Origin: a virus
Lineage: Duplodnaviria > Caudoviricetes
Length of the DNA: 31,804 nt
IMG/VR virus record: IMGVR_UViG_3300036904_000011
Span: 1 to 31,804 of that record
Reading direction: 5' to 3' (one strand)
Under the pieces are notes generated by a model, which was not told the origin of the DNA, made no database searches, and saw only the letters and a list, made by a program, of their open reading frames with translations. The position numbers and the translations under genes are program-made. Position 1 is the stretch's first letter; every line of letters starts with the position of its first letter. Shown piece after piece: positions 1,980 to 21,499 of the stretch.

Positions 1980-2178
1980 CAGGCCTAGTGTAAACAAGCT
2001 CTAACCTGCCTGCTAGTAGAGGTTCTGGCCCATCTAGGACATTTTCGACGTGGTTAGGGTCCATGGCAGTGGTGGGAATCGCGCTACGGGTTACTGGGAA
2101 GCCTCTAATTGACGGTTTATGAGGTCCGGGAGATGGTATGTAAGCTTTGCAGGCTTTAGTGCTATGAATGTATGGGCC

Positions 2179-2212
2179 AAAAGTTAACCCCTGCCGTCGC
2201 TAGCAGGGGTTA
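2179..2212 (-). terminator. intrinsic terminator
   Basis: 10-bp stem TAACCCCTGC/GCAGGGGTTA followed by CTTTT on the minus strand, just after the 2232 stop codon. Confidence 0.75.
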
Positions 2213-2231
2213 GCAGCTCGTGGAGAACGAA

Positions 2232-3182
2232 CTAAACTTCATCCCGAATCTTTCTGCCCGGAACTACTTCTACGAGTTCCTTAAGCTGTACTGAAATCTT
2301 CGCCATTTGCTCTGCAATTTGTGTCTTGAGAGATTCGTCCTTTTTCAGACCATCGGCGTACACTCCGCTATGCAGGTAACCTTTAACCTCGTTTACTAGT
2401 ACTTCCAAGTCCTGATCTTGAGCGATATCGCGATCCTTGAACGTGTCAATAAAGTCCTGCACGTTAGTAATCGCGGACGCAAAAAGTCTTTTTGGTTTGC
2501 CATCCGCATTAGGTGTGAGTACATCGGCGAGATGCGATACTAGCTCACTCATCGTTTGCCGCATGAAAAGGGTTATCTCGTTGGAAGCTTCTGCCAATTT
2601 TGCTTGCATCTTTTCGTTAGCCTTGGAGCGGATGGCTTCTGAAAGCGCATCCGGTATGGAGATGGTTTGATACTCATAATCAAACGTGAATTTAGCTCTA
2701 AAAGCTTCCGAGCTAAGATAATCCAGAGCATTGCCAAGCGGTCCAAGCGATACTATCGCATCTGCCACCCTTTGAGGATACGCGGCAATGCACGCATCGA
2801 CTAGGCCTTTACGCTCATCCTCATAAGCTTCTAGCCTATCGTTTACCGTGTCTAACAGGCCGATGGGCAGGAGTTGAGTGCCCATGGACCATGGCAAGCA
2901 TATGGTATACAAGTAGGTTCGAATCTTGCCATCTGCCGTCCGAATGGCTTCAAGTTCCGGAGATTCCAGCAAGGTTTTTTGCGCTTTTACAAGCTTAGCT
3001 TTGTAGTCTGTTGTCTTATTGCTAGTCACTTCCGCCGTACTCATGTTTACCGATTCGGACGAATCAGAGGTTATGTGAATCTGGCTTTGAGGGATTTTTT
3101 TCGTGTTTCCCGGCAAGCCAAAGGACACACGTAGAAAAAAGGTTTTGTCAGTGATTGGACTCTTTTTGACATTAGCAGCCAT
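2232..3182 (-). CDS. DUF3150-like helical protein (316 aa)
   Basis: AAGGAG RBS. The pattern LRVSFGLPGNTKK...KTLL...CLPW..G..LLP...F/C..AYP resembles DUF3150-type proteins of mobile elements (recognised by eye). Ends GRKIRDEV. Confidence 0.65.
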   Translation of the reverse strand: MAANVKKSPITDKTFFLRVSFGLPGNTKKIPQSQIHITSDSSESVNMSTAEVTSNKTTDYKAKLVKAQKTLLESPELEAIRTADGKIRTYLYTICLPWSMGTQLLPIGLLDTVNDRLEAYEDERKGLVDACIAAYPQRVADAIVSLGPLGNALDYLSSEAFRAKFTFDYEYQTISIPDALSEAIRSKANEKMQAKLAEASNEITLFMRQTMSELVSHLADVLTPNADGKPKRLFASAITNVQDFIDTFKDRDIAQDQDLEVLVNEVKGYLHSGVYADGLKKDESLKTQIAEQMAKISVQLKELVEVVPGRKIRDEV

Positions 3183-3229
3183 TTTATTCTCCTTTGCGTA
3201 TTAAATACGCGGGTTAGTGGGTTAGTGGT

Positions 3230-3556
3230 CTAGAGGAATGTACGCTCCAGGTAATCTACTTCGAAAGCGATTGCGCTCTCTCTACTGTCCCATTGCACGC
3301 CTAATATTCCCTGCCCGATGGGTGAAAAATCTATAAGCCATTTGCAACGCCATGATCGCGTGAACCGTGCGAGGACGGTACCATCTCCAAAAATTCGTAG
3401 GGCATGCCAGATAGTTCTTATTAACAAGTTGGCAGGAACAATGTGACTTGCCCGTCTAACGGTTGAATCTGGCAGGATAAGCAAGGGAGATTCAGCGGAG
3501 ATTAGGTATTTAACCTCCGCTGTATCCTCATCAATTGTGACTTTGATAATGTTCAT
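3230..3556 (-). CDS. conserved hypothetical protein of AAA/DUF1257/DUF2997 clusters
   Basis: Motifs VRRASHIVP, WLIDFSPIG and RESAIAFEVDYL; operonic position. Confidence 0.7.
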   Translation of the reverse strand: MNIIKVTIDEDTAEVKYLISAESPLLILPDSTVRRASHIVPANLLIRTIWHALRIFGDGTVLARFTRSWRCKWLIDFSPIGQGILGVQWDSRESAIAFEVDYLERTFL

Positions 3557-3564
3557 GTAATCCC

Positions 3565-3750
3565 CTAGGCCTTGATTGTAGACCCCTGCACTTGTTGTCT
3601 GTATTCCGGTTTGATTGTTTCCTTGGTTAACTTGCCAACTTGAGAGAATGCCTTGAGCAGAGCATCACATCCCTTGCCGTGAAATCCGATTAGATCGATG
3701 TTAACCTCGGCTGTAGTCTCATCGATTTGAACCTTTACTAGTTGAGCCAT
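3565..3750 (-). CDS. DUF2997-like small protein
   Basis: 61 aa with V.IDE..V.....GFHGKGC...L.....G......KPEY; adjacent to the DUF1257-like gene. Confidence 0.75.
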   Translation of the reverse strand: MAQLVKVQIDETTAEVNIDLIGFHGKGCDALLKAFSQVGKLTKETIKPEYRQQVQGSTIKA

Positions 3751-3754
3751 TGGA

Positions 3755-4186
3755 TTATCCTTTCACGAATAGCAGTTCACGTTTGTCGGCTTTTTTGGGA
3801 CCATACCCGGCAAAGCGCAATCCTTGCTTTTGAGCGGTTTTTATGGTGAATCGTTCGGCGTAGTTAACCTCTAGTTTCTTGCGCCATGATGCACCCTGCA
3901 ACGATTGATCGTATGCGGACACGATAGCCTCAAACCGGCCTGTTAGAGGGTTACGCTTAAACCCGATATCGTTGGACAAGCCGCGCACGAATTGACGCCG
4001 AATGATAACCTCTGCCCTGTCGCCTGTTGCATCTAGATACTTTGTTGGATGCCCCTGAAAGTCGATCAACTGTTGCGGCGTATCGTATACGCTGATTTGC
4101 TCCTTTGTCCATCCCATATCGGTTAATGCTTCGATAAGGCAGGGCAAGTCCTTGATGATCGTTTCTGCCATTCCGTATTTGCTCAT
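3755..4186 (-). CDS. DUF1257 (Ycf35-like) protein
   Basis: MS......T.IKD..CL..AL..MG, AEVIIRR, NDIGF and F..IVS.YD motifs; overlaps the upstream stop codon (ATGA). Confidence 0.8.
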   Translation of the reverse strand: MSKYGMAETIIKDLPCLIEALTDMGWTKEQISVYDTPQQLIDFQGHPTKYLDATGDRAEVIIRRQFVRGLSNDIGFKRNPLTGRFEAIVSAYDQSLQGASWRKKLEVNYAERFTIKTAQKQGLRFAGYGPKKADKRELLFVKG

Positions 4187-4683
4187 TGCTCCCCTCCAAA
4201 GATACTTTTACCGTTCCACGTATGGTTTGGTACATCGGCACGATGAGCCGATGTTATGGCTTCGTCGTACGCCTTCCGTGCCGATACTACGGCTTCGTCG
4301 TACGCCTTCCGTGCCGGTGCTATGGCTTCGTCGTACGCCTCCGATGCCGATACTACGGCTTCGTCGTACGCCTTCCGTGCCGGTGCTATGGCTTCGTAGT
4401 ACACCTTCCATGCCGGTACTACGGCTTCGTCGTACGCCTTCCGTGCCGGTTCTATAATCTTTAGAGACGCCGTACTAACGGGTCTCATATTATCTAAACG
4501 GGTTATCTGCTCATGTTTGGGTTTGTTTGAAAGAATGTATCCAATCCGATTTTCAATCGGTTCTCTCAATTCTTCAAACTCAATTTCGTGGTGAATGCAC
4601 CAGCCGTATTGAGACGGGTTATCTTTCCATGCCTTCTGGCACTCATCGGTTGCTTGCACTATGGTACGTGATTCGGCTTTCAT
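4183..4683 (-). CDS. 11-residue-repeat helical protein, paralog B (166 aa)
   Basis: AAGGAG RBS; about 78-aa N-domain shared with 1..591, six repeats, and a short C-terminal tail. Confidence 0.9.
   Translation of the reverse strand: MKAESRTIVQATDECQKAWKDNPSQYGWCIHHEIEFEELREPIENRIGYILSNKPKHEQITRLDNMRPVSTASLKIIEPARKAYDEAVVPAWKVYYEAIAPARKAYDEAVVSASEAYDEAIAPARKAYDEAVVSARKAYDEAITSAHRADVPNHTWNGKSIFGGEQ
4258..4450 (-). repeat. 33-bp coding tandem repeat, 6 units
   Basis: Units start at 4258, 4291, 4324, 4357, 4390 and 4423; same family as 1..358. Confidence 0.95.
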
Positions 4684-4740
4684 CTTTGATTCTCCTTAAC
4701 TTGTTAATAAGTTGCAGGTTAAAAGCGTACTCGAATACGC

Positions 4741-6267
4741 CTATTCATCCCTCATACGTCGGCCGGATGGGGCATCCAAAAGGTTAGATGCGGTCTGAGC
4801 CGATTCAGACCATGAGTAGATACCGGGCTTCGATGCTGAGAGATACTTGCCAGAGGAATTGCGCCGCAACTCTTCTATTCTGCCCTTGTCCGATACAGTA
4901 ACAGGCACAATGTAAGTAGAGGCATCTTTAAGCGAGATTTTAAGGGTATAGGCAGTGTACGCGCAATTTTTAATCTCTGCCCCTGTCCATCCCTCATCGT
5001 TCGGCATTGCTTGTACTGGCAGGCTATACTTCGCCCTGTAAATGTCCCATATCATGTTTCGCTCATTTTGGGTTTCCGGAGCGTCAAAAAAGAAAGTAGC
5101 AGCGGAAAACCTACGCTTGAGTTCCGGCGGTAAAGCGTTAACGCTATTGCACGTTGCCACCATGAAAGCAAACCCCCCGCTAATCGAATCAATCATAGCT
5201 TGAGCCGTTCTCAGGTTTTCATTCGAACTGCCTACTATACCAGATTCCATCGAAGCCAGATCAAACTTGATTACTGGGATACCGTACTTATTACCAATAG
5301 CCTTTGCTAGTGCGCTTTTACCAACTCCGGGTATTCCGAGCGATAGTACTCCCCTAATCTGCTTGTCCTCTGTCCAATCCAGCATACTGCCAGTTAATTT
5401 GGTAGTAACTCCACTTGTGTCGGTTCCCGACCCTGCAAACGCCTTTTCAACCTCATCCATAAAAAGTATCAAGTTAGGAGGATTCAAACCCTCGCACACC
5501 TTGCAAAGGTAGTCTTTAGCTTGTTGTAACCCGCCGATATCGTCGATAGATTCTTTGCCCGAGAGAACTTGCAAACCCCTTGTTTGATTGATGGCCTGCC
5601 GCTTTCTTTCCCATAGTGCATCCATATCAAGCGAATTAGCCTGCCTATCGATGCACATGGCCAGGCTCTGCTCAGACGGGAACAAAGGCAGGCCTATTAA
5701 AGCTTTAGTCGCGTGATCGATAATATCCGTCGATGGCGTACCCATTTTAGCATACGCGAAAGTATCAGTAATGCACTGCGCAAGCTCCTCTACCGACGGC
5801 AACGGCTCATCCAGTACCAATGTATCACTTGCGATTTCATTAGGTAAAATTGCTCCGCTGCCTGTTAGCATAATAAGCATGTTTCCAAGCGATTTAAACC
5901 TATCCCTGAGATTCCAGATACCTTGTATTACTGATGGCGCATTGCTCCAAAAAAGATGCGCATTGTGAATGAAAATGATCGAATCCTCAGGCAGGTATTG
6001 TGCAACAGTTAGCAACTCTTCTAGTACTCTCGTTGCTTCAATGCTTATACCTGCCTTTGCACACCCATTAGCTAGAGCTTTCTCGCCTTCAGGGTTGATG
6101 TGATATGCGCCCTTCATTGTGTCCCATGCCAGCAGCGAATAGGCTGTAGAGGTTTTCAGGCTTTTGATTCGATCAATCGTACTTTTGGCATCAAAAGTCC
6201 GGACGCAGAGCAATGGTACTCCTGCCATTAGTGCAGACTTGTACTGGCTTGTAAATGTGATAACCAT
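4741..6267 (-). CDS. Ycf46-like AAA+ ATPase with rearranged Walker motifs (508 aa)
   Basis: Ycf46-type degenerate N-domain, DIGGL N-linker, Walker B LILFMDE, Walker A GIPGVGKS, sensor-1 VATCN, LPPEL.RRF arginine finger, and GWTGAEI lid. Confidence 0.9.
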   Translation of the reverse strand: MVITFTSQYKSALMAGVPLLCVRTFDAKSTIDRIKSLKTSTAYSLLAWDTMKGAYHINPEGEKALANGCAKAGISIEATRVLEELLTVAQYLPEDSIIFIHNAHLFWSNAPSVIQGIWNLRDRFKSLGNMLIMLTGSGAILPNEIASDTLVLDEPLPSVEELAQCITDTFAYAKMGTPSTDIIDHATKALIGLPLFPSEQSLAMCIDRQANSLDMDALWERKRQAINQTRGLQVLSGKESIDDIGGLQQAKDYLCKVCEGLNPPNLILFMDEVEKAFAGSGTDTSGVTTKLTGSMLDWTEDKQIRGVLSLGIPGVGKSALAKAIGNKYGIPVIKFDLASMESGIVGSSNENLRTAQAMIDSISGGFAFMVATCNSVNALPPELKRRFSAATFFFDAPETQNERNMIWDIYRAKYSLPVQAMPNDEGWTGAEIKNCAYTAYTLKISLKDASTYIVPVTVSDKGRIEELRRNSSGKYLSASKPGIYSWSESAQTASNLLDAPSGRRMRDE

Positions 6268-6321
6268 CGGTTCTCCTTAAACTGTTAATAGGTTAACGGT
6301 TGAAAGCGTACATGAATACGC

Positions 6322-6516
6322 TTAGTCTCCATCCCTCAGGTTCAAGGCTTGATTGTAAAGTATTGCCCGTTTTTCATCCCGTGCTGTTAATTCGTTAAGG
6401 AGAATCAAGGCCTTATGCTGCTTTTCAAGCTTAAGAACCTCACGCGCTATTACGCCTATGGCGAGTAGCAAGAATAGTGCGAACCAAACCAAAACCAAAA
6501 CCATATCGAACCTCAC
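6322..6516 (-). CDS. small membrane protein
   Basis: One N-terminal hydrophobic helix (VLVLVWFALFLLLAIGVIA) followed by a charged helix. Confidence 0.6.
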   Translation of the reverse strand: MRFDMVLVLVWFALFLLLAIGVIAREVLKLEKQHKALILLNELTARDEKRAILYNQALNLRDGD

Positions 6517-6590
6517 TATCGAGTCACATCATGAACGGTTGAGCCAGACTCAGCACGAACGGTTGAGCCGGACTCTGTATACTGTGCCAT
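6516..6590 (-). CDS. possible 24-aa peptide MAQYTESGSTVRAESGSTVHDVTR
   Basis: AGAAAGG upstream; internal 24-bp duplication; its TAG overlaps the GTG of the next gene. Confidence 0.35.
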   Translation of the reverse strand: MAQYTESGSTVRAESGSTVHDVTR

Positions 6591-6744
6591 GGTGATAACC
6601 TTTCTGTGACTGCAACACATCACTTCTTTATTTAACGGCAATTCTCCCTAATCTGTCAAGGGGGATTATCAAATAGTTTGGCCATTGACGTGCATACAAA
6701 GCAAGCCTACCCTTTCGGATAGGCTTTGATGGACCTAGATGAGG

Positions 6745-6930
6745 TCAGAGGTACAGCCGGGTGTTGATGTTCTTGAACTGGTCGAGGCCGTTGTATGTCC
6801 CCATGTACATCCAATGACCGGCGTAGTTCCAAGCTGGCTCCTGGTCGGTGAGCCTGCCTGCCGCTATCGCTTCCGTGAAAGCCTGCCGAGCATCTTTGAA
6901 TGTTGGGTGTGTTGCCGTCGCGGTTTCCAT
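6745..6930 (-). CDS. hypothetical phage protein (61 aa)
   Basis: GGAGGG RBS; AF..AI..GRL...WMYMGT...D.FKN..TR.YL pattern. Confidence 0.75.
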   Translation of the reverse strand: METATATHPTFKDARQAFTEAIAAGRLTDQEPAWNYAGHWMYMGTYNGLDQFKNINTRLYL

Positions 6931-7315
6931 GTGCTGTCCCTCCATTAGAACAGTGTCGGGTGAATGGTGAAGGTTTGAGGTTAGAGGTTCCGAGCGTATA
7001 CATATACGCGTATGATGTTTACCTGCTAGCTAACGAGCATAGCAAGCGTAAAGGCCATGGTAAAAAGCCATGCACGAAAGGTAAAGCTTTCATCCATTCG
7101 CATACAATCTCCTTTCCCATACATGAAAGCATAAGACCTGCCAACGTGTCAAATGGTCAATACGTATTCATATACGCGTCTATGTTCATAGAGTGCCTGT
7201 TCAATGCGCTGATACGCAAGTTGCTCACTTGCAATCTTCGCACGTACAAGCTTGCCGACTATTGTCCAGACGGTAACGATTCCGATGGTTGCGAGAGTCA
7301 AGTGAAATCGTGCGA

Positions 7316-7759
7316 TTATTTATAGCTGGCTAATTGCTTGCGGCGAACGTCAACCGCATCACTGGGAAGTCTACGCCGAACCACGAGAACGTAGTTGTAT
7401 GGCTCAGACTCCAGTTCTGCTTTCAGGTTTGCGTACTCTTCGGGCTTCGCTGGTTTGGTGGCAGCTATGCACATTCCAGGATTGGCGCTCCCGTGCTGCC
7501 CTATGTGTTCATAGCAGGAACACGTATATGGATCGTTCGTGCCGGGATCGTAGGGAAAGAGTGCCAGGATACCGCCGCCTTCAGACTTCGGCCACTTGCG
7601 GAAGATCACAAGGGTAGTAGCAGGAATCTCCAGGCCAGGGTAATTGGACTTCGCATGTGCGATGTGTTCCTTGCACCATGTGTAGCCCTTGGCAGCTTTC
7701 TTGCCGCAGACCTGGGGACTGTTGACGGTGCCGGATTCGGTTTGCCAGTTGCACTTCAT
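7316..7759 (-). CDS. hypothetical protein with N-terminal Cys/His cluster (147 aa)
   Basis: AAGGAG RBS; C...C...C..H N-terminus followed by a VIFRKW...ALFP...YEHIGQHG domain. Confidence 0.8.
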   Translation of the reverse strand: MKCNWQTESGTVNSPQVCGKKAAKGYTWCKEHIAHAKSNYPGLEIPATTLVIFRKWPKSEGGGILALFPYDPGTNDPYTCSCYEHIGQHGSANPGMCIAATKPAKPEEYANLKAELESEPYNYVLVVRRRLPSDAVDVRRKQLASYK

Positions 7760-7845
7760 GGTTTGTTCTCCTTGACTGAATCAAGTGTCTCACGAATCGT
7801 GTTGAATGCCAAGCATTCTTTTGAGACATGCTTGACACGAAAGTG

Positions 7846-7989
7846 TTAGCGTGCCAGCATTTCGGCGTACATCTTCTCCGTATGCTCTATTTCCTTCACG
7901 AGCATTTCCCGGTCAGGGCCTGTGAAAACTGACAGCATTTTCTTTAGCGCCCCTAACCGTGCTACCATGTGCTTTTCACCGTTACTCAT
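7846..7989 (-). CDS. hypothetical protein (47 aa)
   Basis: ATG 7989 after GAGGA. The ORF-track TTG start at 8037 is the -35 box. Confidence 0.6.
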   Translation of the reverse strand: MSNGEKHMVARLGALKKMLSVFTGPDREMLVKEIEHTEKMYAEMLAR

Positions 7990-8008
7990 GTTTTTCCTCA
8001 CTGAATCC

Positions 8009-8037
8009 ATAGTCTCATGTTTTATGTTGATTGTCAA
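8009..8037 (-). promoter_or_regulatory. sigma70-type promoter
   Basis: TTGACA-17 bp-GACTAT, followed by GGATTCA as at the 14619 and 14978 promoters. Confidence 0.55.
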
Positions 8038-8522
8038 GTCTTAATCGGTTACCGTCGTAAGTAGACGCAGGCCTAGCAAAGCGTATTCATATACGCGTAC
8101 TGGCTTTCTCGGACCATGGACAATGGGGCAATATACAGAGCATAGATAGACCATATCAAACGTAATCAAACGTACTCGAATACGTATATTTGTTAATGAC
8201 TGTCAGACTGCTACTAGGCTTTCATATACTGTACGCCATACAGTACTTTGTAATGCAAAGTTGCCGATTCTTCATTTCCACGAAATGGGTACATAGGAGG
8301 GTAACCCTCCATTAAATCAACAAGATACGGTATCATAGACTCTGATACGTATTGATACGTTTACTAGATTGTTTCCATATGACTTGATACGTTTACTGTA
8401 CGGTGTGTAACTTCTTTGGAATCAATAACTTCCCTAACCATCCCTTTTCTGAGCCTAGACCGGCAGAGTCTCCCCACCCCTCGCCGATGCCGCGCGAACG
8501 GACCCGGCCAGCAAGAAAGCTT

Positions 8523-8574
8523 GGAGTCCCATAACGTCCCTAGGAGTCCCATAGGAGTCCCATAGGAGTCCCTA
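8523..8574. repeat. 11-bp tandem repeat GGAGTCCCATA
   Basis: Copies at 8523, 8543, 8554 and 8565, plus a degenerate copy at 8534. A (TCTGCGC)3+ run lies at 8776-8801. Confidence 0.85.
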
Positions 8575-8696
8575 ACCATCCCTAGTGTTGCCACAGACTT
8601 ACTGTGTATACACAGTTCACCCATGCTTAAGCCATCGCTTTACTATTTTTGTATAGTTATTGTATATACATTAGGAACAACATTCTCATAAACACG

Positions 8697-8726
8697 AAAA
8701 AACCCTACCTCCGAAGAGATAGGGTT
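8697..8726 (-). terminator. intrinsic terminator
   Basis: Minus strand reads AACCCTATCTC-TTCG-GAGGTAGGGTT-TTTT (cUUCGg loop, U tract). Confidence 0.75.
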
Positions 8727-9038
8727 CATATAAGGGATTTACGTACTTGACTCCCGTTTTCTTTAGGTGGCCCGGTCTGCGCTCTGCGCTCTGCGCTCTG
8801 CTAAGGACGAACGCGGAGGTCCACCGCGTTGATCAGGACCGACCCCAATACAGCTATCGCTGTCTCGTCCCGCAGTGTCTTGCACGTTGCTCCCTCGTGG
8901 TCCACTTTGCTCCTCCTTTGGCGTACATACTTCGTAATGACTGTTGGTAGTTCTGAATATTTAAAGTCTCCTATATCTTCCCCGGATGCAAGACCAGCTT
9001 GCGCACTAGGCGTATTTACATACGCATATCTTTCGACA

Positions 9039-9725
9039 TTACACCTCATCTCTAAATCTCCTTCCACTGAACTGCTGTATATCTACTCTCTCTGGACCAA
9101 GACCCGGAACCTGTCGGACAGCCTTTGGTGTAAAACTATCAATAGGAACTATGTTACTAGGCTTTGGTGCCGGTGCCGGAAGTTTATTAGCAGCCTCTTG
9201 CAGATTCTTTAACGCCAATTCTTTCTTGGCAATATCGTCTTTAATATTCTTACCGTTGAAGTAACTCTGCTTCTTTTTGGCATTCTTTATTAGTAACTTT
9301 TGCTGTTCTATTTGATCTTGTAAGTATTCTTTTTGCTTATCCGCTTTCTTTTCTTCCAGCAAATCTTTATAGCTTTCCAAGTCTTTAGGCTTATATAAAG
9401 ACTCAATGGCATTAGGAGTATTGTTATTCAGCAAATCGCATTCGAATACTGGTTCCGATATGCCATCATGCCTGTGTTTGTCACAAAAGATACCCAACTC
9501 TGTCCAGTTTTTGTTATCAAGAACCTCATCGTAGTTTAAAGTCTGGGTCTCTTTGCACTTCTGACAAATGGCCCTACAATCCATACCACCTGTTGCTAGG
9601 GGACGGGACTGTAGGACCACATTGAAGTTAGACAATTTGGCGATGGCGTGGATAGACCCTTGCTCCAAACCTTTTTGTCGGCCGGCAAACAAGGGTCCGC
9701 CGAATTTCAAAATAACTCCATCCAT
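9039..9725 (-). CDS. hypothetical protein with CxxC/CxxH metal site and Lys-rich coiled coil (228 aa)
   Basis: CQKC...FCDKHRH, a coiled-coil stretch, and a C-terminal GRRFRDEV. Confidence 0.8.
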   Translation of the reverse strand: MDGVILKFGGPLFAGRQKGLEQGSIHAIAKLSNFNVVLQSRPLATGGMDCRAICQKCKETQTLNYDEVLDNKNWTELGIFCDKHRHDGISEPVFECDLLNNNTPNAIESLYKPKDLESYKDLLEEKKADKQKEYLQDQIEQQKLLIKNAKKKQSYFNGKNIKDDIAKKELALKNLQEAANKLPAPAPKPSNIVPIDSFTPKAVRQVPGLGPERVDIQQFSGRRFRDEV

Positions 9726-11028: not shown

Positions 11029-11120
11029 TGGTGGGGACGGATGGATTCGAACCACCGATGTTTACCAGCTTGGGTCGCAGGGTTACAGCCTGCTATCTTC
11101 AACCGCTTGATTACGTCCCC
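11029..11120 (-). tRNA. tRNA-Tyr(GTA)
   Basis: GGGGACG/CGTCCCC acceptor stem, GCAGG-CT GTA AC-CCTGC, long variable arm, TTCGAAT loop, encoded CCA. Confidence 0.95.
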
Positions 11121-11196
11121 TTGTTTATTAATCTACTAAAACCATTGTAGCACACCTTTGTCAGATGCGCTATAAAAATTTCGGGTATATTAAATT

Positions 11197-11283
11197 TGGT
11201 GCGGGTAGAGGGACTTGAACCCCCATGCCAAATATGACAGTTGATTTTAAATCAACCGCGACTTCCGATTTCGCCATACCCGC
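11197..11283 (-). tRNA. tRNA-Leu(TAA)
   Basis: GCGGGTA/TACCCGC, GTTGA-TT TAA AA-TCAAC, long variable arm, CCA. Confidence 0.95.
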
Positions 11284-11306
11284 ATCGGCCCTTCACAGCT
11301 TATTTG

Positions 11307-11576
11307 CTAGCAAACTATTCGCTCATCATGATTTCCATATACGAAATAGTGCTTGCCATTAAGTGCATATCTAATATCTAAACACTCTCTCAGAGAGCAA
11401 GACTTCCAGAACATATCACCAAGATGGAACACTTCGTCATTTTTACCTACTATTGAATTATGATTATTGATAAGTTTTTCTTTCATATCTTGTAATGATA
11501 TGAATGGTCTTGACGTAAACTTAAGTATATTAAAATGTCCATAGTGCTCATCTGATGTAAAAAAGATGTTTTCCAC
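11307..11576 (-). pseudogene. truncated paralog of the 10385..10984 phosphoesterase (N-terminal half, 89 aa)
   Basis: GTG 11576 after AAAGG. Has FTSDEHYGH, LGDMFW and GNHD, then TAG; lacks the last two metal-binding motifs. Confidence 0.75.
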
Positions 11577-11592
11577 TTGTTTTCCTTTCTTT

Positions 11593-11687
11593 TGGCGGGT
11601 GCAGTAAGATTCGAACTCACGGAACGTGGTACTAGCACGTCCTCTGGTTTTCAAGACCAGTGCCTTAAACCGCTCGGCCATACACCC
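11593..11687 (-). tRNA. tRNA-Ser(TGA)
   Basis: GGGTGTA/TGCACCC, CTGGT-CT TGA AA-ACCAG, long variable arm, G73-CCA. Confidence 0.95.
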
Positions 11688-11736
11688 GTATTCATATACG
11701 CTTTCGTGCTACTTCCTGATAACTCATTAATAAGTT

Positions 11737-11839
11737 GTCCGCACAGACCCGTTTACTACGGTTGTAAACTGCGCTTCCTCTCCTTACGTCTCTGCTCGGT
11801 GCGCTCCAGTCAGACGGGATACGGTAAGCCTGTGCGGAC
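11737..11839 (-). ncRNA. candidate structured RNA (about 103 nt)
   Basis: Closing stem GTCCGCACAG/CTGTGCGGAC extends through a G-U pair only on the minus strand; inner CCCGT/ACGGG helix; lies between two tRNAs. Confidence 0.45.
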
Positions 11840-11956
11840 TTTTGTCTTGTGTCTTTCCCCGAAGCTAATACAGGTAAGATATCTAAAGAGCTACTTCACA
11901 AGGCAAACGTATTTAAGTACGCGAACTAATCACTTGCTGTAAAACTATTAATAGCT

Positions 11957-12030
11957 TGGTGCCGGTCAAAGGCTTTGCAACTTCTCAGGGAAAGCTTATG
12001 AGACTTCCTGCCTCTGCTACGGGAACCGGC
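11957..12030 (-). tRNA. atypical tRNA with CAT anticodon (Met or Ile2)
   Basis: GCCGGTT/GACCGGC-A-CCA and a CT CAT AA loop; D arm and T loop are non-canonical. Confidence 0.7.
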
Positions 12031-12039
12031 CAATTTTAT

Positions 12040-12251
12040 CGCAGTATACAAGCCATCTGGACAATATGCAAAAAGCAAATTGCAAAAGTCAATAAGCATC
12101 ATCAAGTTATTTCCCGTTACAATGTGCATATGTCGAAGACATGTATTATTAATATTACGGGAGTCACCTTGATTCATCGAATACAAATGGATGAAATCCA
12201 CTTGTATAATAAGTATTTCCCCTTTCGGGGAGTGATGGGTTGTATACTGCG
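12040..12251 (-). ncRNA. candidate multibranch RNA (about 212 nt)
   Basis: 18-bp closing stem (12040-12057/12234-12251, one mismatch), TCCCC-GAAA-GGGGA hairpin on the minus strand, and further nested helices. Confidence 0.55.
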
Positions 12252-12303
12252 TGTGGTGCATCAACGGGACGGACCACTGCGATGCACAACAACCTTACAA
12301 AAC

Positions 12304-12861
12304 TTACAGAATTTCGTACTTATTGAGAAAAGAAACTTCCTCATCAGAAAGTTCAATCTCAGTCTTCACATTGAGATTAAGAAGTTGATCACTAACCTTC
12401 TGCTTCTGTCTGCGAATGGTCACCATGTTCTTCTTGAATGCTTCCACAGTCTCTTTCTTCAAGAGTCCAACCGTGAACGTCTTGGCACGATACCCGGTTG
12501 CATCTGCTGCTTTGATATCAGCAAGTTGGGCATCCAAAGCTTCTTTAGTCACAGCGAATGAAGTTGTTGATGCAAGTTGGCGAAGAAATGCTTCGCGCTT
12601 TGACAACAGAGCTTGAGTTGTTAGCAAATCGGCAACCCCTGCAACTTGTCCAGCCGCTGCAACCTTGCCACGAATTGCATACAACACGGTAATAAGATCA
12701 AACTTCTGTCCAACCGTTTCTAGCAAAATGTCGGCGGCTTGGTCTACCACTTCAACGGGGTTGTCAAACTTTCCAACTGTTACTGTTTCTACAAACGGGC
12801 TATTAATCTGCTCGTTAATCAAAAGCTGCAAGGCATTAGCCTTTCTCAAAGATATCTTCAT
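12304..12861 (-). CDS. hypothetical helical protein (185 aa)
   Basis: ATG 12861 (MKISLRKANALQ) after AGGAG. The longer ORF-track start merely reads through the GAAA repeat. Confidence 0.85.
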   Translation of the reverse strand: MKISLRKANALQLLINEQINSPFVETVTVGKFDNPVEVVDQAADILLETVGQKFDLITVLYAIRGKVAAAGQVAGVADLLTTQALLSKREAFLRQLASTTSFAVTKEALDAQLADIKAADATGYRAKTFTVGLLKKETVEAFKKNMVTIRRQKQKVSDQLLNLNVKTEIELSDEEVSFLNKYEIL

Positions 12862-12870
12862 CTGTCTCCT

Positions 12871-12895
12871 CTTTCTTTCTTTCTTTCTTTCTTTC
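12871..12895. repeat. (CTTT)6 microsatellite
   Basis: Six CTTT units directly upstream of the RBS of 12304..12861. Confidence 0.9.
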
Positions 12896-13093
12896 TTCAA
12901 TTCGGTCTGTGGCAATTCCACTGCGCCGGACTAGGAACACTAACTACCAACCGTGTGAGTGCTCCCTATGGCAAACATGTGAGCAATAAAAATTTAACTG
13001 CCCTCTTTTCACGTGTTGCTTGTAGTCTTTCAGTAATCTGTTGAATTTGTTTCCACATTTTTTACAACTTAATTCAATAGTTTTCATAGGAAT

Positions 13094-13172
13094 TGGTCAG
13101 GGACCAGAGATTCGAACTCTGACGGTATTCTCGGCTCCAGACCGAGTGGCCTTCCAAATGGCCCTGTCCCTG
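13094..13172 (-). tRNA. tRNA-Pro(TGG) with non-canonical anticodon loop
   Basis: C1-G72 and A73-CCA; CTCGG-TC TGG AG-CCGAG gives C33 and A37. Confidence 0.85.
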
Positions 13173-13183
13173 ATTAAACTGTT

Positions 13184-13261
13184 TGGGGTGCAGTGTGGGA
13201 TTCAAACCCTACGTATCGAGATTCACAGACCCGCGCCTTTTTCCACTCGGCCAACCGCACC
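13184..13261 (-). tRNA. tRNA-His(GTG)
   Basis: G-1:C73 pair, CT GTG AA loop, CCA. Confidence 0.9.
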
Positions 13262-13713
13262 ATAATCTCTGGCAGCATTCATATTGAATGCTTGCCATCA
13301 AGTCACATGTTTGTGCCATGACGCAACAACTTGTTTATCGTCACATGTTGTCATAACGCCGTTCTTATCTTTTATTTTTACGGCTCATGAAAGACGGATG
13401 AAACGTTGAGCCTTCCCAATATTAAATGACCAGTTTCACACTATTCGTCAAGCCGGTCTAAAGCCGTCAAATGGGTAATTCGTACTATTGCTCGTCTGCA
13501 CCGTCTTAGGGTACTTGACTCATACTGGTAAACCATTATAACCGCTGCATTAATGGTACGGTCTAGACGGTTTCACAACCTGTTCGCACCCTGTCAATGG
13601 ACTGAGTGGTTATTTTCCTGACTCAAACGTACCATATTATAGCCGGTTGTGCATCTTATCTTACACCAACTCTGTTGACTCTTCTTCTGGGAGTGTCTAA
13701 CCTTCCGGCAGCT

Positions 13714-13789
13714 TAGTGCTAGTGGTCAAGAATCGAACTTGCGACCTCCGGGTACAATCCCGGCGCTCTTCCATTGAGCTACCACCAGC
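13714..13789 (-). pseudogene. degenerate tRNA, probably Thr(TGT)
   Basis: Normal D arm (TAGCTCAATGGAAGAGC) and TTCGATT loop, but a 6-nt anticodon loop ATTGTA, an 8-bp acceptor stem and a 3' end ACTA instead of ACCA. Confidence 0.7.
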
Positions 13790-13799
13790 AAATCTTTTT

Positions 13800-14200
13800 G
13801 GCCCGTTCTGTTGCTAGGTGGGCCATTCCCCGGTCCTAATTTCTTAGGCCATTACTAGATCGTTGTCATGAACTTCCGCGCCAAGGTCACTGTTTCCAGT
13901 TTCGATTGCGTTGAGGAAATCTTCTACAACACTAGCCTGCTGATTTTGGTCGGCAGTTATTGTTTTCCGCTTTTAACATAGTCGGCTACGTGCAAGTCTG
14001 CTAACACCTTGATAAATACTGTCGAATCTTGTCAGGCCCAAATTATTACGTGAAGTTATTGTTTCAACAGGGTACCCTGCTAACGGGGTCCGCTTCACGT
14101 AAACTTGCTAATACAAAACTTGGTGGACCTGCGGACTTATGCTAGTCCGGTCCAATATTACAACATGCGCTTCATACTTGCGTACTTTATAGTGGCCTAT
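13800..14200 (-). ncRNA. ssrA: circularly permuted (two-piece) tmRNA
   Basis: The acceptor piece ending CAGGTCC-A-CCA at 14121 lies upstream of the coding piece starting GGGCCTGACAAGATTCGAC at 14039. G3-U70 Ala determinant; ATAACT-GCC resume context; tag ORF 13954..13844. The 5' boundary near 14200 is approximate. Confidence 0.9.
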
Positions 14201-15380: not shown

Positions 15381-18119
15381 CTATTTCTTCCAGTATCCTG
15401 CGATATTGTAGTCAAACTCCATGATTACCTTTTTCATCTTGGTTGCCGCCGCCCGTTTGAAAGCGTCTCCAATCAATTCTGCTACAATTTTTCCATATTG
15501 CTTTGGGCATTGTACGACAAGTTCATCGTGAACAAACTTAATCAGCTTTGCCTTGTACAACAGCAAAGTGTGCCACAGATAAGGCTTCCCATCTTTGTCA
15601 AATTTTGCCGACATCGCTAGCTTGGCAATTGTTGCGTTGGTGCCTTGAATCCTATGATTCTTTCCTTGTCTCCCGATGCCACTTGAAATTCCAATATAGC
15701 TCTTTGCAACTTCTTTTTGAGTAGGCTCACGGTGAATTAGTATGTACTCTTCTTCTTTATTAGGTTTGCGTCCTTTGACCTTTTCAAAGGTATCCAGATT
15801 TTGCTGCGCTTCATCTGTATCAAGTCTAAGGTCTTTCTCATTACGCTCTTTACAGTTCGCTCTAGCGCGTTCCGTAGTAGGCTCTGGCAGTATTCTTCTA
15901 CGGCCAAATAGATCGAACGCTTTAAAGTTGCGTTGAGCCTCCTCGCCTGAGTTCTTAAGATACGCCCAGATAATCGGATTCTTCTGTTCGTGAAGTGCCA
16001 TCAATTCTTTGGCAACCTTCATTGTCTTCTTAATCTCAGTCGCCAGTTTTCCTGGCCCTCCCCCATATGCCAAAAGAAAATTGGTACTCTTATTGTGGTC
16101 TCTCATTTCCTTGTGCAATGGACAACTACATTTTTGATGTTGTGGTTCTCCCAAAATTCTAAGGATATTCTTAGCAACACTCTGCTCATCATGGGCCTTG
16201 AAGTATGCACAATCTGCTAGTTTGGATGCAGGCCACTCTTTCTCATAGAGGAGTTCGGTTCCGACTGAGTGAACGTCCTCACCTTTGGCAAATGCATTAA
16301 TCCACACCGGGTCATTAGCGTCTTCTGCAATGATCCTAAGTTCTGCTCCTGACATATCGGCAGTTACGATTACATACTCTATTTTAGCGTACGTATTACA
16401 CGGTTTATTACACTTGGAGCAAATAGTTTGCACATCGTCGCCTAAATCCGTGTTTATATATTCAAAATAGGTGTCAGATTCACAGCATACACTTATCCTA
16501 ATATCTTCGTTCGGATCATCAGCTATAAAACAACTTCTTACCTCTTTATCTTGAGGGAGGTTTTGGCCGTTAGGTTTTTCAGACGAGCTTCTTCCAGTTT
16601 CGGCGTCGTATTGATTAAACTCACAGTGCAATCTCCCATCGCCGGGGTGTAACCATCCTTCTTCTTTACACGGATGAGTTGTCCACGTTTGCGCCCATGC
16701 GTCACCATACGTGCCGATTTCTTTAGCCAATCCGTGATACTCACGAATAGCCTTTACAACTGGAATGTCTTCATATTTCTCCAGAATCTCATCATCAAGT
16801 CCTTCGATCTTGGCTAGCTTTTTTACGTTGTCCTTGAGCAGCTTCATCAACTGTGCATCTGAGCTATAATTTACAAGGGCTTCTCCTTGACACATATCTG
16901 CCAGATTGTTGATCTTCGTTCTTTTCTTCTTCAAATCGGAGCATTCTTTTTTCAGAACTTCTTTCTGTGCCTTACGTTGCTGCTCCCATTGGCTCATCTG
17001 TATTTCTAGTTCTCGCTGCTTCAATTGGTTATCAACAGATTCATCACTTCCAATAACAAGCTTCCTACAGTCTCTTCGAAGGCTTATAAGCTGCAACTTT
17101 AGTTCCAACTCCGTGCTAGTTGGATTGTTGTATGTCTTCCACTCTGCTTCTAACTTCTCAATCGTAGAGTCACTAATCTGTTCATTCTTGGACCCAGTTA
17201 TAGGCAAGAAAAATCCATCAAGGTTTTTCACAACCTCAACCATGCGCAACTTCTTTTTGGCAACACGCGCAAGCCATGCGGCGGTATCTATTCTTTCCCC
17301 GTGAACGTGCATGTCCACGAAACTCCCTAGACATGCGTTCTCAATTTCGATTACCTCATTCAGATTGTCGCCAAGAATTAACGGGTCTAGTTTTCCCAAA
17401 TACCCAGACATGATTTTTTTGCCTTTACGGAATAAACTTCCAACAGTCTCTCCATCGGCAATCAATGTCTGAATTACTTTTATAGCCAGAGGGGTACGAG
17501 TGTCTAATGCTGCATATTCAAATTGTGGATCAGAGAGTTCATCCTCAAGGTTGAATGATGTTTGTAGCGCCTTGTCCATACTCTTGTTGAAGTATCTCCC
17601 AAACATCTCTTCCATTGAGTAGAATTCATAGTTTTTCAGATATGCACTTCCGCCTAATCCAGCGTATATACACTTCTCTGCCCACATACAATCGTAGTAA
17701 CCATATGTTCTTAATCCAAATTGCCAATATAAGCATTCATATTCAAATGCAAGATTAACTCCCACCTTCAACCACTTGTCGCTGCATAGATAAAGTTTTA
17801 ATCCCATTAACAGTTTATGAAGATTGGGTGCTTTCTCTAAATTCTTCCCGTAGTCACCCTGACACGTATATAATACGTCTGAGTCTGAGCAAAATGCCTT
17901 TAAGTCGATTACATATTGCTCAGTAGATGTTCCGAACTGCATGGTCCTCATGCGCCTATAGAAGAAGTCTTTTGTGACGGTGGTCTCTACGTCGAATCCG
18001 AACTCAAATGTGCGCTCTAGGAAGTCGATCAGCTTTCCTATTGACTCATCGTCAACAACTCGCGTGATATTTGGTGGCGGGTCGAGTATAAGTGGCGTGC
18101 GTTCAACGATATTATCCAT
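15381..18119 (-). CDS. polA: family A DNA polymerase with 3'-5' exonuclease domain (912 aa)
   Basis: Exonuclease motifs FDVETT, NLAFE and YAALD; TGRSSS..PNGQNLP; motif A ADMSGAELR, motif B R...KSTNF...YG, motif C VHDEL. No 5' nuclease domain. Confidence 0.95.
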   Translation of the reverse strand: MDNIVERTPLILDPPPNITRVVDDESIGKLIDFLERTFEFGFDVETTVTKDFFYRRMRTMQFGTSTEQYVIDLKAFCSDSDVLYTCQGDYGKNLEKAPNLHKLLMGLKLYLCSDKWLKVGVNLAFEYECLYWQFGLRTYGYYDCMWAEKCIYAGLGGSAYLKNYEFYSMEEMFGRYFNKSMDKALQTSFNLEDELSDPQFEYAALDTRTPLAIKVIQTLIADGETVGSLFRKGKKIMSGYLGKLDPLILGDNLNEVIEIENACLGSFVDMHVHGERIDTAAWLARVAKKKLRMVEVVKNLDGFFLPITGSKNEQISDSTIEKLEAEWKTYNNPTSTELELKLQLISLRRDCRKLVIGSDESVDNQLKQRELEIQMSQWEQQRKAQKEVLKKECSDLKKKRTKINNLADMCQGEALVNYSSDAQLMKLLKDNVKKLAKIEGLDDEILEKYEDIPVVKAIREYHGLAKEIGTYGDAWAQTWTTHPCKEEGWLHPGDGRLHCEFNQYDAETGRSSSEKPNGQNLPQDKEVRSCFIADDPNEDIRISVCCESDTYFEYINTDLGDDVQTICSKCNKPCNTYAKIEYVIVTADMSGAELRIIAEDANDPVWINAFAKGEDVHSVGTELLYEKEWPASKLADCAYFKAHDEQSVAKNILRILGEPQHQKCSCPLHKEMRDHNKSTNFLLAYGGGPGKLATEIKKTMKVAKELMALHEQKNPIIWAYLKNSGEEAQRNFKAFDLFGRRRILPEPTTERARANCKERNEKDLRLDTDEAQQNLDTFEKVKGRKPNKEEEYILIHREPTQKEVAKSYIGISSGIGRQGKNHRIQGTNATIAKLAMSAKFDKDGKPYLWHTLLLYKAKLIKFVHDELVVQCPKQYGKIVAELIGDAFKRAAATKMKKVIMEFDYNIAGYWKK

Positions 18120-18126
18120 TCATTCC

Positions 18127-18155
18127 ATTTTACAACAGAGCGGTCAGTTTGTCAA
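18127..18155 (-). promoter_or_regulatory. polymerase promoter
   Basis: TTGACA-17 bp-TAAAAT, 7 nt before ATG 18119. Confidence 0.8.
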
Positions 18156-18188
18156 GTAAAAATAAACTAAATTTCTTTTGCAAAACCC

Positions 18189-18217
18189 TTGACAAGCCGA
18201 TTGACTTGTGTTATTAT
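18189..18217 (+). promoter_or_regulatory. RNase H promoter, divergent from the polymerase promoter
   Basis: TTGACA-17 bp-TATTAT with extended TG, 9 nt before ATG 18227. Confidence 0.8.
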
Positions 18218-18226
18218 GGTATCTGG

Positions 18227-18676
18227 ATGAGAACTTTAAGACTGCACTTCGATGGATCAATCTCCAACCCCAACCCCGGCGGAAACGCCGCTTGGGGCTT
18301 CTATATAACTGACAACATGGAAGTTGTTGCCGAAGGAACAGGGCCACTGGCCGGAAATCCTTTAATAAGCAACAACTATGCGGAGTTATTCGCATTGCAT
18401 AAAGGTTTGGAGAAAGTAAAAGAGATTGTCTCACAAAGTGAAGAGAAATATCAGTTGATGGTATTTGGTGATTCCCAACTTGTCATAAACATTATGACAA
18501 AGAAGTGGGGAATTGATCCTGAAAAGTTGTACTATCCAGCCTACTTGATGGCTAGGGATTCGACTGTGTGTATTCGCAAGAAGAACATATTAGTATCTTT
18601 TGATTGGATTCCTCGTGAATACAATACAAAAGCTGATGAACTTTCAAGGTGGCAACAATATGAATTGGTTCATTAA
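18227..18676 (+). CDS. rnhA: ribonuclease HI-family protein (149 aa)
   Basis: FDGS..NPG, NNYAE, GDSQLV and WIPRE.N..ADEL; the four catalytic acidic residues are present. Confidence 0.9.
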   Translation: MRTLRLHFDGSISNPNPGGNAAWGFYITDNMEVVAEGTGPLAGNPLISNNYAELFALHKGLEKVKEIVSQSEEKYQLMVFGDSQLVINIMTKKWGIDPEKLYYPAYLMARDSTVCIRKKNILVSFDWIPREYNTKADELSRWQQYELVH

Positions 18677-18733
18677 TGAGTCCGTAAGGGCCTTAATGTA
18701 CTGTTTATGAGTCAAAGCATCAGTATATTACCG

Positions 18734-19097
18734 GCAGTAAACATCTCTGACTGTGCAAGTCTCGGATGGTAGTTAGGTTAGCTGATGACCGTGCAGGAGA
18801 GCACGGCGCAAAGGGTAGAGGTTCGGACTGCCTGAGTACAGGCACTGAGGGAATTGCCAACTATGGTCTGGTAATTCTAGGATACCTTTTCAAAGAATGC
18901 GTGATTGTAAAAATGCAGACATAGCAATGTTTGTAGCGGACCCAGTCTAGGAAGCACTCCTTTACTGACACCGATTTGAAGCTACCTCCGGGGACACTAC
19001 TAGTGTGTTGATGCGCTATCATCAAGAATCTAGTCTAGTTGGTAAGATGACACCGTTAGTTGTTTACACGGCAGAACATCTCGACACTGTTTACTGC
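18734..19097 (+). ncRNA. candidate large structured RNA
   Basis: 10-bp long-range closing stem GCAGTAAACA/TGTTTACTGC with at least six nested helices, in an ORF-free gap of about 860 bp. Confidence 0.55.
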
Positions 19098-19358
19098 AAG
19101 AGCCGAAAGGTTTGAAATAGGCCATAGAAATCATTGTCTCTGTTGCCCTATTAACGGGTAGATACGGGAGAACACTATCCTGTCCCTGCAAGAGTATACT
19201 TGTTAATTAAGTATATTTAAAGTATATAAAGTGTTATCTTGGGGCAAGATAGACGCAGAATAGGGGCTATAAACAGTTCAACTTTAGTTTGGGAAAATAA
19301 GAGAATATTTATTTCACCTTTAGTTTCAAGCACTTGCAGACCATTTTTTGAGAAACAC

Positions 19359-19389
19359 TTGACAAGGCGGGGGCAACTCATGTTATACT
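19359..19389 (+). promoter_or_regulatory. promoter with extended -10
   Basis: TTGACA, then TG-T-TATACT; the 19-bp spacer is longer than optimal. Confidence 0.6.
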
Positions 19390-19542
19390 GGTAGTATCTT
19401 ACAATAAGAACAGTGGTTAAAGTAACAAGGAAACAAGTCCCGGCTCCTCCTAGTTATGAGCTAACGCTTGTAACTACCGGGACTTGATATTGAGGAACGA
19501 GGGCCACTCTAAACGGTGGCCCTTTCATTTATGGAGAATTAC

Positions 19543-19812
19543 ATGCTACCTATTGCCCTACAAGTAACGATTGCCTCTACAGGCGTAGCACAACAGCTTC
19601 CTGCCAATCCTTTAAGCATAGGTTACACATTTTCTGCACCGAGTTCTAACACGGGATCCGTTGTGGCAGGGAACAGTTCAGCAGTCACATCTTCAACTGG
19701 TTATATCATAAGCAAGGGAACATCTTCACCATTTGTGCAATTTCAAGGAAATACGAACTCACTTTGGGTTGTTGGAACGGCAGCAGATGTAATCTCCCTA
19801 ATAGGAACATAA
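19543..19812 (+). CDS. small beta-rich protein, possibly virion-associated (89 aa)
   Basis: ATG 19543 after GGAG; S/T/G/V-rich with almost no charged residues. Confidence 0.75.
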   Translation: MLPIALQVTIASTGVAQQLPANPLSIGYTFSAPSSNTGSVVAGNSSAVTSSTGYIISKGTSSPFVQFQGNTNSLWVVGTAADVISLIGT

Positions 19813-19994
19813 TGAGAGCATCAAATACAGTAGACAACTTGAAAGGTATTGATCGAGACGAAGCAGTTGCAATGGGTCGCATTTACTTTTCGATAAGCCC
19901 CAGAACGGACTCAACTACACTTCGTGTTAATCCATTACCAACAACTCTGGATGCAACTGGCAAGAACGTATTTAATACGCAAGAACAAGTTTAA
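19812..19994 (+). CDS. hypothetical protein (60 aa)
   Basis: TAATG stop/start overlap with the previous gene. Confidence 0.6.
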   Translation: MRASNTVDNLKGIDRDEAVAMGRIYFSISPRTDSTTLRVNPLPTTLDATGKNVFNTQEQV

Positions 19995-20035
19995 AAGAGC
20001 GCCCGTATAATACTTTATACAATAATCGTGGCGCT

Positions 20036-20059
20036 AAGCCCTGAAGAAGGGCTTTTATT
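20036..20059 (+). terminator. intrinsic terminator
   Basis: AAGCCCT-GAAGA-AGGGCTT-TTATT. Confidence 0.6.
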
Positions 20060-20121
20060 GAGGGGCACATAGTTTTATAGACGTATGACGCGGTGTGCCC
20101 CCTAGAGCCGGGAGATTACCC

Positions 20122-20541
20122 ATGTACTCGAAAGTCAGGGTCAAGCGTGGAGCATTGAACTACTTTCGCAGAATGGCTCGTAAATCATATCCTAAAGAAA
20201 TACAAGTGTACTTGTTAGGCAAGATTGTATCCATGGATGAAATACATGTGACAGATTTTGTATATACAAATAAGTATTTCAAACAGACAACAAATACAGT
20301 AGTTTGGACACAAGAGGAATATAATAAATTAAAGCTACGAGCAGAATTAGAAGGCAAGAAGATAGTAGGGGATGCACACAGTCATCCAGATTGGGATGCT
20401 GTTATGAGTCCAACTGATTACGCCGGGGCGATCATAGAGTCATTATGGCTTTGTGGTATTTGCTCTATACATGTTAATAGGACTAGATTTAGATTCTGGA
20501 CCCCAACTTCTGCATTGCCGTGCAAGATTATTTACTCATAG
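20122..20541 (+). CDS. JAB/MPN (JAMM) metallo-isopeptidase family protein
   Basis: Upstream Glu (PKEIQ) and VGDAHSHP-x5-MSPTD fit E-xn-HxH-x7-S-x2-D. Confidence 0.85.
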   Translation: MYSKVRVKRGALNYFRRMARKSYPKEIQVYLLGKIVSMDEIHVTDFVYTNKYFKQTTNTVVWTQEEYNKLKLRAELEGKKIVGDAHSHPDWDAVMSPTDYAGAIIESLWLCGICSIHVNRTRFRFWTPTSALPCKIIYS

Positions 20542-20555
20542 TTCTGGAGGGAACA

Positions 20556-20990: not shown

Positions 20991-21138
20991 AGGATTAGCC
21001 TTACCGTTGCCTCCAGAGGCTGCTCAATTCGCAACTGATTTCGCAAATATTGTATTGAGAAATTTTATAGAGTTGATGCAGCAACAAGCTAAAGCACAAC
21101 AGCCGGTATCAGAGAAAAAGTTAATCATAGAGGGATAA
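20926..21138 (+). CDS. hypothetical protein (70 aa)
   Basis: ATG 20926 after GGAGGG; overlaps the previous gene by 65 bp. Confidence 0.65.
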   Translation: MQATFKVQLQDAQNFQTVWTHKGLALPLPPEAAQFATDFANIVLRNFIELMQQQAKAQQPVSEKKLIIEG

Positions 21139-21369: not shown

Positions 21370-21376
21370 GTTTTAC

Positions 21377-21481: not shown

Positions 21482-21499
21482 ACTCTGGAGTACACAATC

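Follow-up and report, generated by a model that had tools for sequence, protein, structure and literature searches.

Three unrelated proteins encoded on the virus record IMGVR_UViG_3300036904_000011 (Duplodnaviria; Caudoviricetes) end in the same short C-terminal tail. Here, "the window" is the whole stretch of DNA analyzed, 31,804 nucleotides (31.8 kb), and all positions are given on it. The tail is real, selected, and widespread, and it marks two core proteins of a gene module built around a p97-like AAA ATPase. Its receptor is a proposal. We suggest that the tail is a recruitment tag that may dock on the degenerate first AAA domain (D1) of the module's own ATPase, near Asp95, a suggestion that we hold with even confidence for and against. 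The window, from a soil-type phage, encodes a family A DNA polymerase and tRNAs. Judged by its ATPase, the closest isolate is Tunturiibacter phage Tunturi_3 (44% identity), which the relevant passage of PMC11924767 describes as a 97.6-kb podovirus of Acidobacteriota.

Three unrelated proteins share a C-terminal tail

A preliminary description of the window had reported a common tail on three unrelated proteins, and both the open reading frames (ORFs) and their endings are as described there:

2232..3182, minus strand: 316-amino-acid (aa) DUF3150-like protein with a small beta sheet and long helices; C terminus PGRKIRDEV
2235..2258, minus strand: tail 1, GRKIRDEV, C terminus of the 316-aa DUF3150-like protein
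4741..6267, minus strand: 508-aa two-domain AAA+ ATPase, Ycf46-type and p97-like, without an N domain, with a degenerate D1 and a disordered tail; C terminus SGRRMRDE
4744..4764, minus strand: tail 2, GRRMRDE, C terminus of the 508-aa AAA ATPase
9039..9725, minus strand: 228-aa accessory protein with a putative zinc-binding domain, a long, charged, Pro-rich linker, and then the tail; C terminus SGRRFRDEV
9042..9065, minus strand: tail 3, GRRFRDEV, C terminus of the 228-aa accessory protein

Among 920 six-frame window segments of at least 20 aa, the pattern GR[RK][FIMLV]R had only three matches, each two to three residues from the stop. We also compared the C termini of 33 likely window genes, which were chosen by hand. 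The best triple of C termini had five identical columns; internal 12-mers drawn from those same proteins never exceeded three in 300 draws.

The preliminary description had further held that the codons differ among the three tails and that the peptide, rather than a DNA repeat, is selected. Both statements stand. At the invariant Gly and Arg, codons were not significantly more often identical within genomes than between them (0.27 versus 0.23, P = 0.16), and on this ground we rejected a DNA repeat or recent copying. The overlap of tail 3 with an AAGGAG..ATG signal, which had been raised as a caveat, is present in the sequence. However, it fails to explain the tail as a ribosome-binding-site artifact, because the tail is retained in relatives of the 228-aa protein and tblastn matched nothing in the fetched loci to the 88-aa ORF downstream. 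Two of the tails had also been described as following flexible linkers; that of the 316-aa protein comes directly after helix H283-305.

The tail is conserved and enriched at C termini

Orthologs of all three proteins retain the tail. R[RK][FIMLV] occurs within the last 14 aa of 24 of 25 DUF3150-like homologs and of 81 of the 120 ATPase homologs that were listed among 1,157 found, and the strict motif is present in 13 and 61 of these same sets, respectively. Relatives of the 228-aa protein were retrieved with a profile of its zinc domain that did not include the tail (175 representatives, 150 listed). Among the 150 listed, 95 carry the strict motif, 118 carry R[RK][FIMLV], and 139 carry a relaxed R-x-hydrophobic version. 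We also counted the motif in 13 related phage records, of which 11 are near-complete, one is a fragment, and one is 60 kb long. It was found 53 times in the last 11 ORF positions versus 25 times internally, shadow ORFs included, an 11.8-fold enrichment per position. Thus, the conservation, C-terminal enrichment, and further tagged proteins that would follow from the preliminary reading of a selected docking motif were all found. These sequences lend good support to such a motif on unrelated proteins.

Tagged genes number up to six per related genome and fall into many unrelated BLAST clusters. After ORFs of less than 60 aa and four shadow ORFs were dropped, 43 curated genes remained, 10 of which are the ATPases themselves. 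All 43 share the orientation of the ATPase gene and lie within 25 kb of it, 39 of them within 10 kb (distances taken as circular). This arrangement bears on the idea, already present in the preliminary description, that the tail serves as a capsid-loading or virion address signal. Cargo-loading peptides are indeed short terminal motifs carried by unrelated proteins. Nevertheless, the idea is unlikely, and the most improbable of those considered here, because the tagged genes cluster near the ATPase; in addition, long contigs from bacterial genome bins contain the module too.

Within one phage group, the version of the tail is genome specific. Tail likeness after the core was 0.77 matches within genomes versus 0.27 between genomes (P = 0.0005, with the window left out). 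Since this likeness comes without likeness of codons, it is the pattern expected from selection against a receptor in the same genome; a shared host or codon bias may be another contributor. From none to about ten residues follow the core, and these are often acidic. They bear on another possibility, namely that the tail marks proteins for degradation or turnover and that a host protease would thereby time early proteins. A short, terminal, unstructured peptide on co-oriented genes of one region would fit such a role. Yet ssrA is a degron of the free-C-terminus type, which the variable residues after the core do not resemble, and two core proteins of the module retain the tail over very distant lineages. 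We regard a degron as very improbable. The phage Tunturi_3 has the strict tail at none of its C termini, and its module proteins terminate in the weaker tails DGRIIR and PDRKFHLEGEEF.

The tail is part of a conserved gene module

The ATPase and the DUF3150-like protein are encoded together with DUF1257 and DUF2997 proteins. All four genes were present in 77 of 80 nonredundant loci flanked by 5 kb or more of sequence, and DUF1257 and DUF2997 accompany the ATPase in 77 to 78 of the 80. Phages carry the module, and so do bacterial contigs, mostly of Acidobacteria, including long contigs in genome bins. One Acidobacteriota genome bin held at least five module copies on different contigs (L181, L185, L187, L188, and L248).

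Across the module, the relaxed R-x-hydrophobic tail was found in 82 of 89 ATPases and in 82 of 89 DUF3150-like proteins, the 89 being the sequences of 91 loci that had been matched beforehand by a looser pattern. Random internal 13-mers matched the relaxed motif in means of 18 (ATPase) and 21 (DUF3150-like), with maxima of 31 and 33. The relaxed tail was uncommon in DUF1257 (14/71) and DUF2997 (7/57). Judged from the sequences, GR[RK][FIM]R-DE is this lineage's form of the module's R-x-hydrophobic tail. Loci that seemed to lack DUF1257 or DUF2997 mostly contain divergent copies, and so gene absence could not point to the receptor.

Covariation points to ATPase residue 95

To search for residues that change together with the tail, we scored the four proteins and two tails by corrected mutual information in 112 loci (effective number, 68), numbering tail positions from the invariant Arg (0). 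Covariation between the two tails served as an internal control and was in register, with +3/+3 (Z = 5.0) and +1/+1 (Z = 3.5) as the top two pairs. The strongest pair between a tail and a protein joined ATPase D95 to position +3 of the DUF3150-like tail (Z = 5.9). ATPase G128, at the start of the next D1 strand, also scored (4.5 and 3.7). The residue of interest is as follows:

5983..5985, minus strand: ATPase Asp95, candidate tail-contact residue just before D1 strand 96-101, the charge of which covaries with tail position +3

The relationship is one of opposite charge. An acidic residue 95 goes with a basic +3 in 32 of 45 tails of DUF3150-like proteins and in 30 of 43 tails of ATPases; where residue 95 is basic, the corresponding counts of a basic +3 are 0 of 32 and 1 of 32. 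With phylogenetic contrasts on three trees, D95 ranked first of 428 charge-variable columns in seven of nine tests and second in the other two. Its contrast correlations with +3 ranged from r = -0.31 to -0.45, against a background standard deviation of about 0.11. In 40 held-out loci, position +3 of the ATPase tail was basic in 13 of 16 cases with acidic residue 95 versus 1 of 9 with basic residue 95. This charge swap, which stays first or second after tree correction, suggests the ATPase itself as the likely dock of the tag, a partner that the preliminary list (host hub, protease adaptor, capsid loader) had missed.

Several observations weigh against docking near Asp95. The focus on +3 was picked after the first covariation result, and the tail anchor was set by a heuristic. 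Unrelated inter-protein pairs reach Z values of 5.1 to 5.5 in the same matrix, and in the contrasts ATPase N434, in the second AAA domain (D2), scores nearly as high as D95 and in two tests higher. A strict test of independent pairs gave about four for and none against of 11, which is not significant (P = 0.125). When 227 ATPases were considered alone, D95 ranked 4 of 289 for +3 (r = -0.19). Most held-out loci with acidic residue 95 are related to the training set, and among the DUF3150-like tails in the held-out loci, +3 was basic in only 2 of 4 with acidic residue 95, one of the four being acidic (with basic residue 95, 0 of 7). Finally, the ATPase's own tail is undocked in the monomer model, with a predicted local distance difference test (pLDDT) score below 50, and the invariant tail Arg cannot be mapped by covariation.

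Other module proteins may also be considered as the dock. The tail could bind the DUF1257-DUF2997 unit or the beta domain of the DUF3150-like protein, and the ATPase and accessory proteins would then compete for this hub, as Mpa and Bpa compete for the proteasome via HbYX tails. DUF1257 and DUF2997 regularly accompany the ATPase yet carry no tail, columns of the one covary with columns of the other (Z of about 9, partly a clade signal), and tail +3 covaries with DUF2997 S36 (Z = 4.8) and with DUF3150-like S99 and D84 (Z = 4.3 to 4.4). A tail on the ATPase's own end would also suit docking elsewhere, as in the system treated in part of PMC4254994. However, the DUF2997 and DUF3150-like columns leave the top five after tree correction, in which D95 stays first or second, and DUF2997 S36 covaries with like rather than opposite charge. 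We consider a dock on these proteins somewhat unlikely, although it is the chief alternative.

A receptor outside the module is more doubtful still. An Arg-rich, flexible tail could bind nucleic acid or a host hub such as a clamp, a partner of the type bound by single-stranded DNA-binding protein (SSB), RNA polymerase, the ribosome, or a protease adaptor. Such a role would agree with the links of close relatives to Acidobacteria and with accessory proteins that have putative zinc-binding and weak WGR-like domains. Against it, the tail version varies by genome inside one phage group, the tail tracks the module over distant phages and bacterial islands, +3 is acidic in many lineages, and the tail covaries with a module residue.

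The p97-like ATPase

The ATPase matches the AAA family (PF00004, E = 5e-13, Pfam), and close homologs bear the source name SpoVK/Ycf46/Vps4. Its structural model (pLDDT, 90.9) contains two AAA domains in tandem, the D1-D2 arrangement of p97/Cdc48, with the last 20 residues disordered. The best structural match of the model is p97/Cdc48 itself (Foldseek E = 4e-14). The model begins directly with the D1 helix and strand, and it has no p97-type cofactor-binding N domain. In the consensus of homologs, D1 has no recognizable Walker motifs. In D2 (window positions 5200 to 5480, minus strand), the strand-helix block of Walker B comes ahead of Walker A in the gene, so the normal AAA order of Walker A and then B does not hold. 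In keeping with this inversion, residues 377 to 429 of VAT align to profile positions 261 to 311, and residues 321 to 373 align to positions 304 to 356. Walker B precedes Walker A in 92 of 93 scorable ATPase homologs, 224 of 317 not being scorable by regular expression.

A possible recruitment mechanism

If the tail docks on D1, the ATPase could act as a ring, as its family suggests, that uses the surface of D1 as a recruitment site in place of the missing N domain, which is where p97 gathers VIM, VBM, and SHP motifs. The ATPase's own flexible tail would occupy this site or compete for it. The DUF3150-like protein would be the standing partner, either a constant client or an adaptor, and variable accessory proteins (zinc-binding, WGR-like, and others) would be recruited by gaining the same tail. 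Once recruited, they might serve as adaptors or as substrates for remodeling early in infection; the family of the ATPase hints at remodeling activity, and gene position hints at early expression. More tentatively, phages and mobile elements may run a widespread p97-like remodeling machine with a ubiquitin-free code, in which any gene that gains a five-residue tail plugs into the dead first domain of the ATPase and the code drifts from genome to genome as charges are exchanged at one contact between tail and receptor. A similar logic may extend to the stress ATPase Ycf46 of cyanobacteria and plastids.

The tail provides a first handle on a very common gene module that is mechanistically unstudied, and it predicts which uncharacterized phage proteins work with the ATPase. 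If the proposal is true, bacterial viruses have a cofactor system akin to that of p97, in which the portable tag is five residues long. Tunturi_3 is a culturable phage that carries the module, albeit with a weaker tail.

Other module and accessory proteins

Three further module-associated genes lie between the ATPase gene and the 316-aa gene:

3230..3556, minus strand: 108-aa conserved module-associated protein with a RASHxEP-type motif; no tail and no family match
3565..3750, minus strand: DUF2997-like protein (PF11211, E = 0.0017, under the curated cutoff); no tail
3755..4186, minus strand: DUF1257 protein (PF06868, E = 7e-8); no tail

The window thus contains the Ycf46/DUF1257/DUF2997 gene set, that is, an AAA ATPase beside DUF1257 and DUF2997, with the DUF2997 match under the cutoff. 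Searches of the DUF1257 and DUF2997 profiles against PDB sequences returned weak or spurious matches only. The 108-aa protein had tblastn matches in 42 loci, duplicates included, and was noted as a fifth regular module member in this phage group.

The preliminary label of the 316-aa protein as DUF3150-like held for its predicted structure and failed for Pfam, where there was no match to DUF3150 (PF11348) and none to any family at E = 0.01. Its predicted fold resembles a DUF3150 cluster in the ESM Atlas (template modeling score of 0.81 over 289 residues), both sides of the comparison being models and 20% of the cluster being PF11348 members. Foldseek gave no match to the model at E of 0.001 or below. 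Fold searches returned generic helical bundles only (best Z = 9.0) and lent no support to an ESCRT-III/PspA reading.

The accessory protein contains one further feature:

9465..9671, minus strand: SNFNV...CxxC...FxxxHxH putative zinc-binding domain, with 175 representatives at E of 0.001 or below and no Pfam match

The linker after this domain is about 130 residues long in the 228-aa protein versus about 10 in most relatives. The domain profile had no match in five module-bearing bacterial genomes of unknown completeness. Pfam found almost nothing in 28 accessory proteins, the sole match being one weak WGR. By eye, other tagged accessory proteins resemble SWIM-finger or clamp-like domains. One tagged family of 200 to 226 aa (L304:6755-7360, minus strand, and L306:16800-17477, plus strand) resembles, by eye, part of a sliding clamp and had no Pfam match.

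Other features of the window

Two paralogous genes on the minus strand (1 to ~590, which runs off the window, and 4183 to 4683) encode an 11-residue ARKAYDEA-type helical repeat in differing copy numbers and had no matches in the fetched loci. Just 3' of the 316-aa gene, a GC-rich hairpin followed by a T run is visible by eye (~2175 to 2215, minus strand) and is absent from the terminator scan list; promoter and terminator scans gave results no better than shuffles. Six tRNA genes (Tyr, Leu, Ser, Pro, His, and one unassigned) lie at 11029 to 13787 on the minus strand, the sixth of which explains a GRKFDS shadow ORF at 13726 to 13851. On the plus strand, RNase H-like, JAB-domain, and dual-specificity-phosphatase-like genes stand in a row (18092 to 21994), partly syntenic with Tunturi_3 gp139-146. 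Farther along the same strand (27301 to 30402), an apparent intein, in which Pfam detects a LAGLIDADG-like domain, splits a terminase-like gene; terminase and intein were recognized by eye.

Comparison with known systems

Judged from their listings, no paper that we found on the module or the motif describes the tail, with subscription journals and bioRxiv supplements lying outside the search. As far as we searched, docking by short motifs on an AAA machine in this form is not yet in print. One close parallel is the set of Ycf46 (AAA+), Ycf35 (DUF1257), and DUF2997 in cyanobacteria and plastids, where the same families stand side by side. In Synechocystis, the DUF2997 and DUF1257 genes adjoin (passage in PMC4284462), and Ycf46 is described in part of PMC13683863 as a stress-induced AAA ATPase of unknown mechanism; the passages of both papers on Ycf46 and DUF2997 do not mention a tail function. 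The phage module differs from the cyanobacterial set in its location in phages and mobile islands, its DUF3150-like partner, its tagged accessory proteins, and its Walker B before Walker A.

A second parallel is HbYX. In the portion of PMC4254994 that deals with Mpa and Bpa, an AAA ATPase and unrelated non-ATPase proteins share one terminal docking motif. In contrast, the phage tails have no Hb-Y-X sequence and no fixed distance from the C terminus. The HbYX arrangement was not found here, in that the tails lack the motif and no 20S gene is among the scanned window genes; neither the annotated window genes nor the Tunturi_3 annotation includes a proteasome subunit.

The SSB C-terminal tail is a short, conserved, flexible docking peptide, with one tail serving many receptors. 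The phage tails are also short, flexible, and C-terminal. However, their logic is the opposite, with many tails and probably one receptor, and so is the charge of their core.

A further parallel is p97/Cdc48. It and the phage ATPase share a two-domain AAA fold and an unstructured C-terminal tail on the ATPase, and according to the sections of PMC5389986 on p97 cofactors, Arg-rich short motifs on unrelated proteins compete for one site on the ATPase. Those sections give the VIM, VBM, and SHP consensus as RRx5AAx2Rh, RRhRLxRF, or GxG, place their binding on the N domain, and add that the p97 system also has PUB and PUL domains that bind its tail. By eye, the phage tails do not fit these consensus sequences. 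The phage ATPase also differs from p97 in having no N domain, a degenerate D1, and no sign of ubiquitin dependence. Likewise, the phage motif is set apart from the p97 motifs in being C-terminal, in being probably extended rather than helical, and in occurring on the ATPase itself as well.

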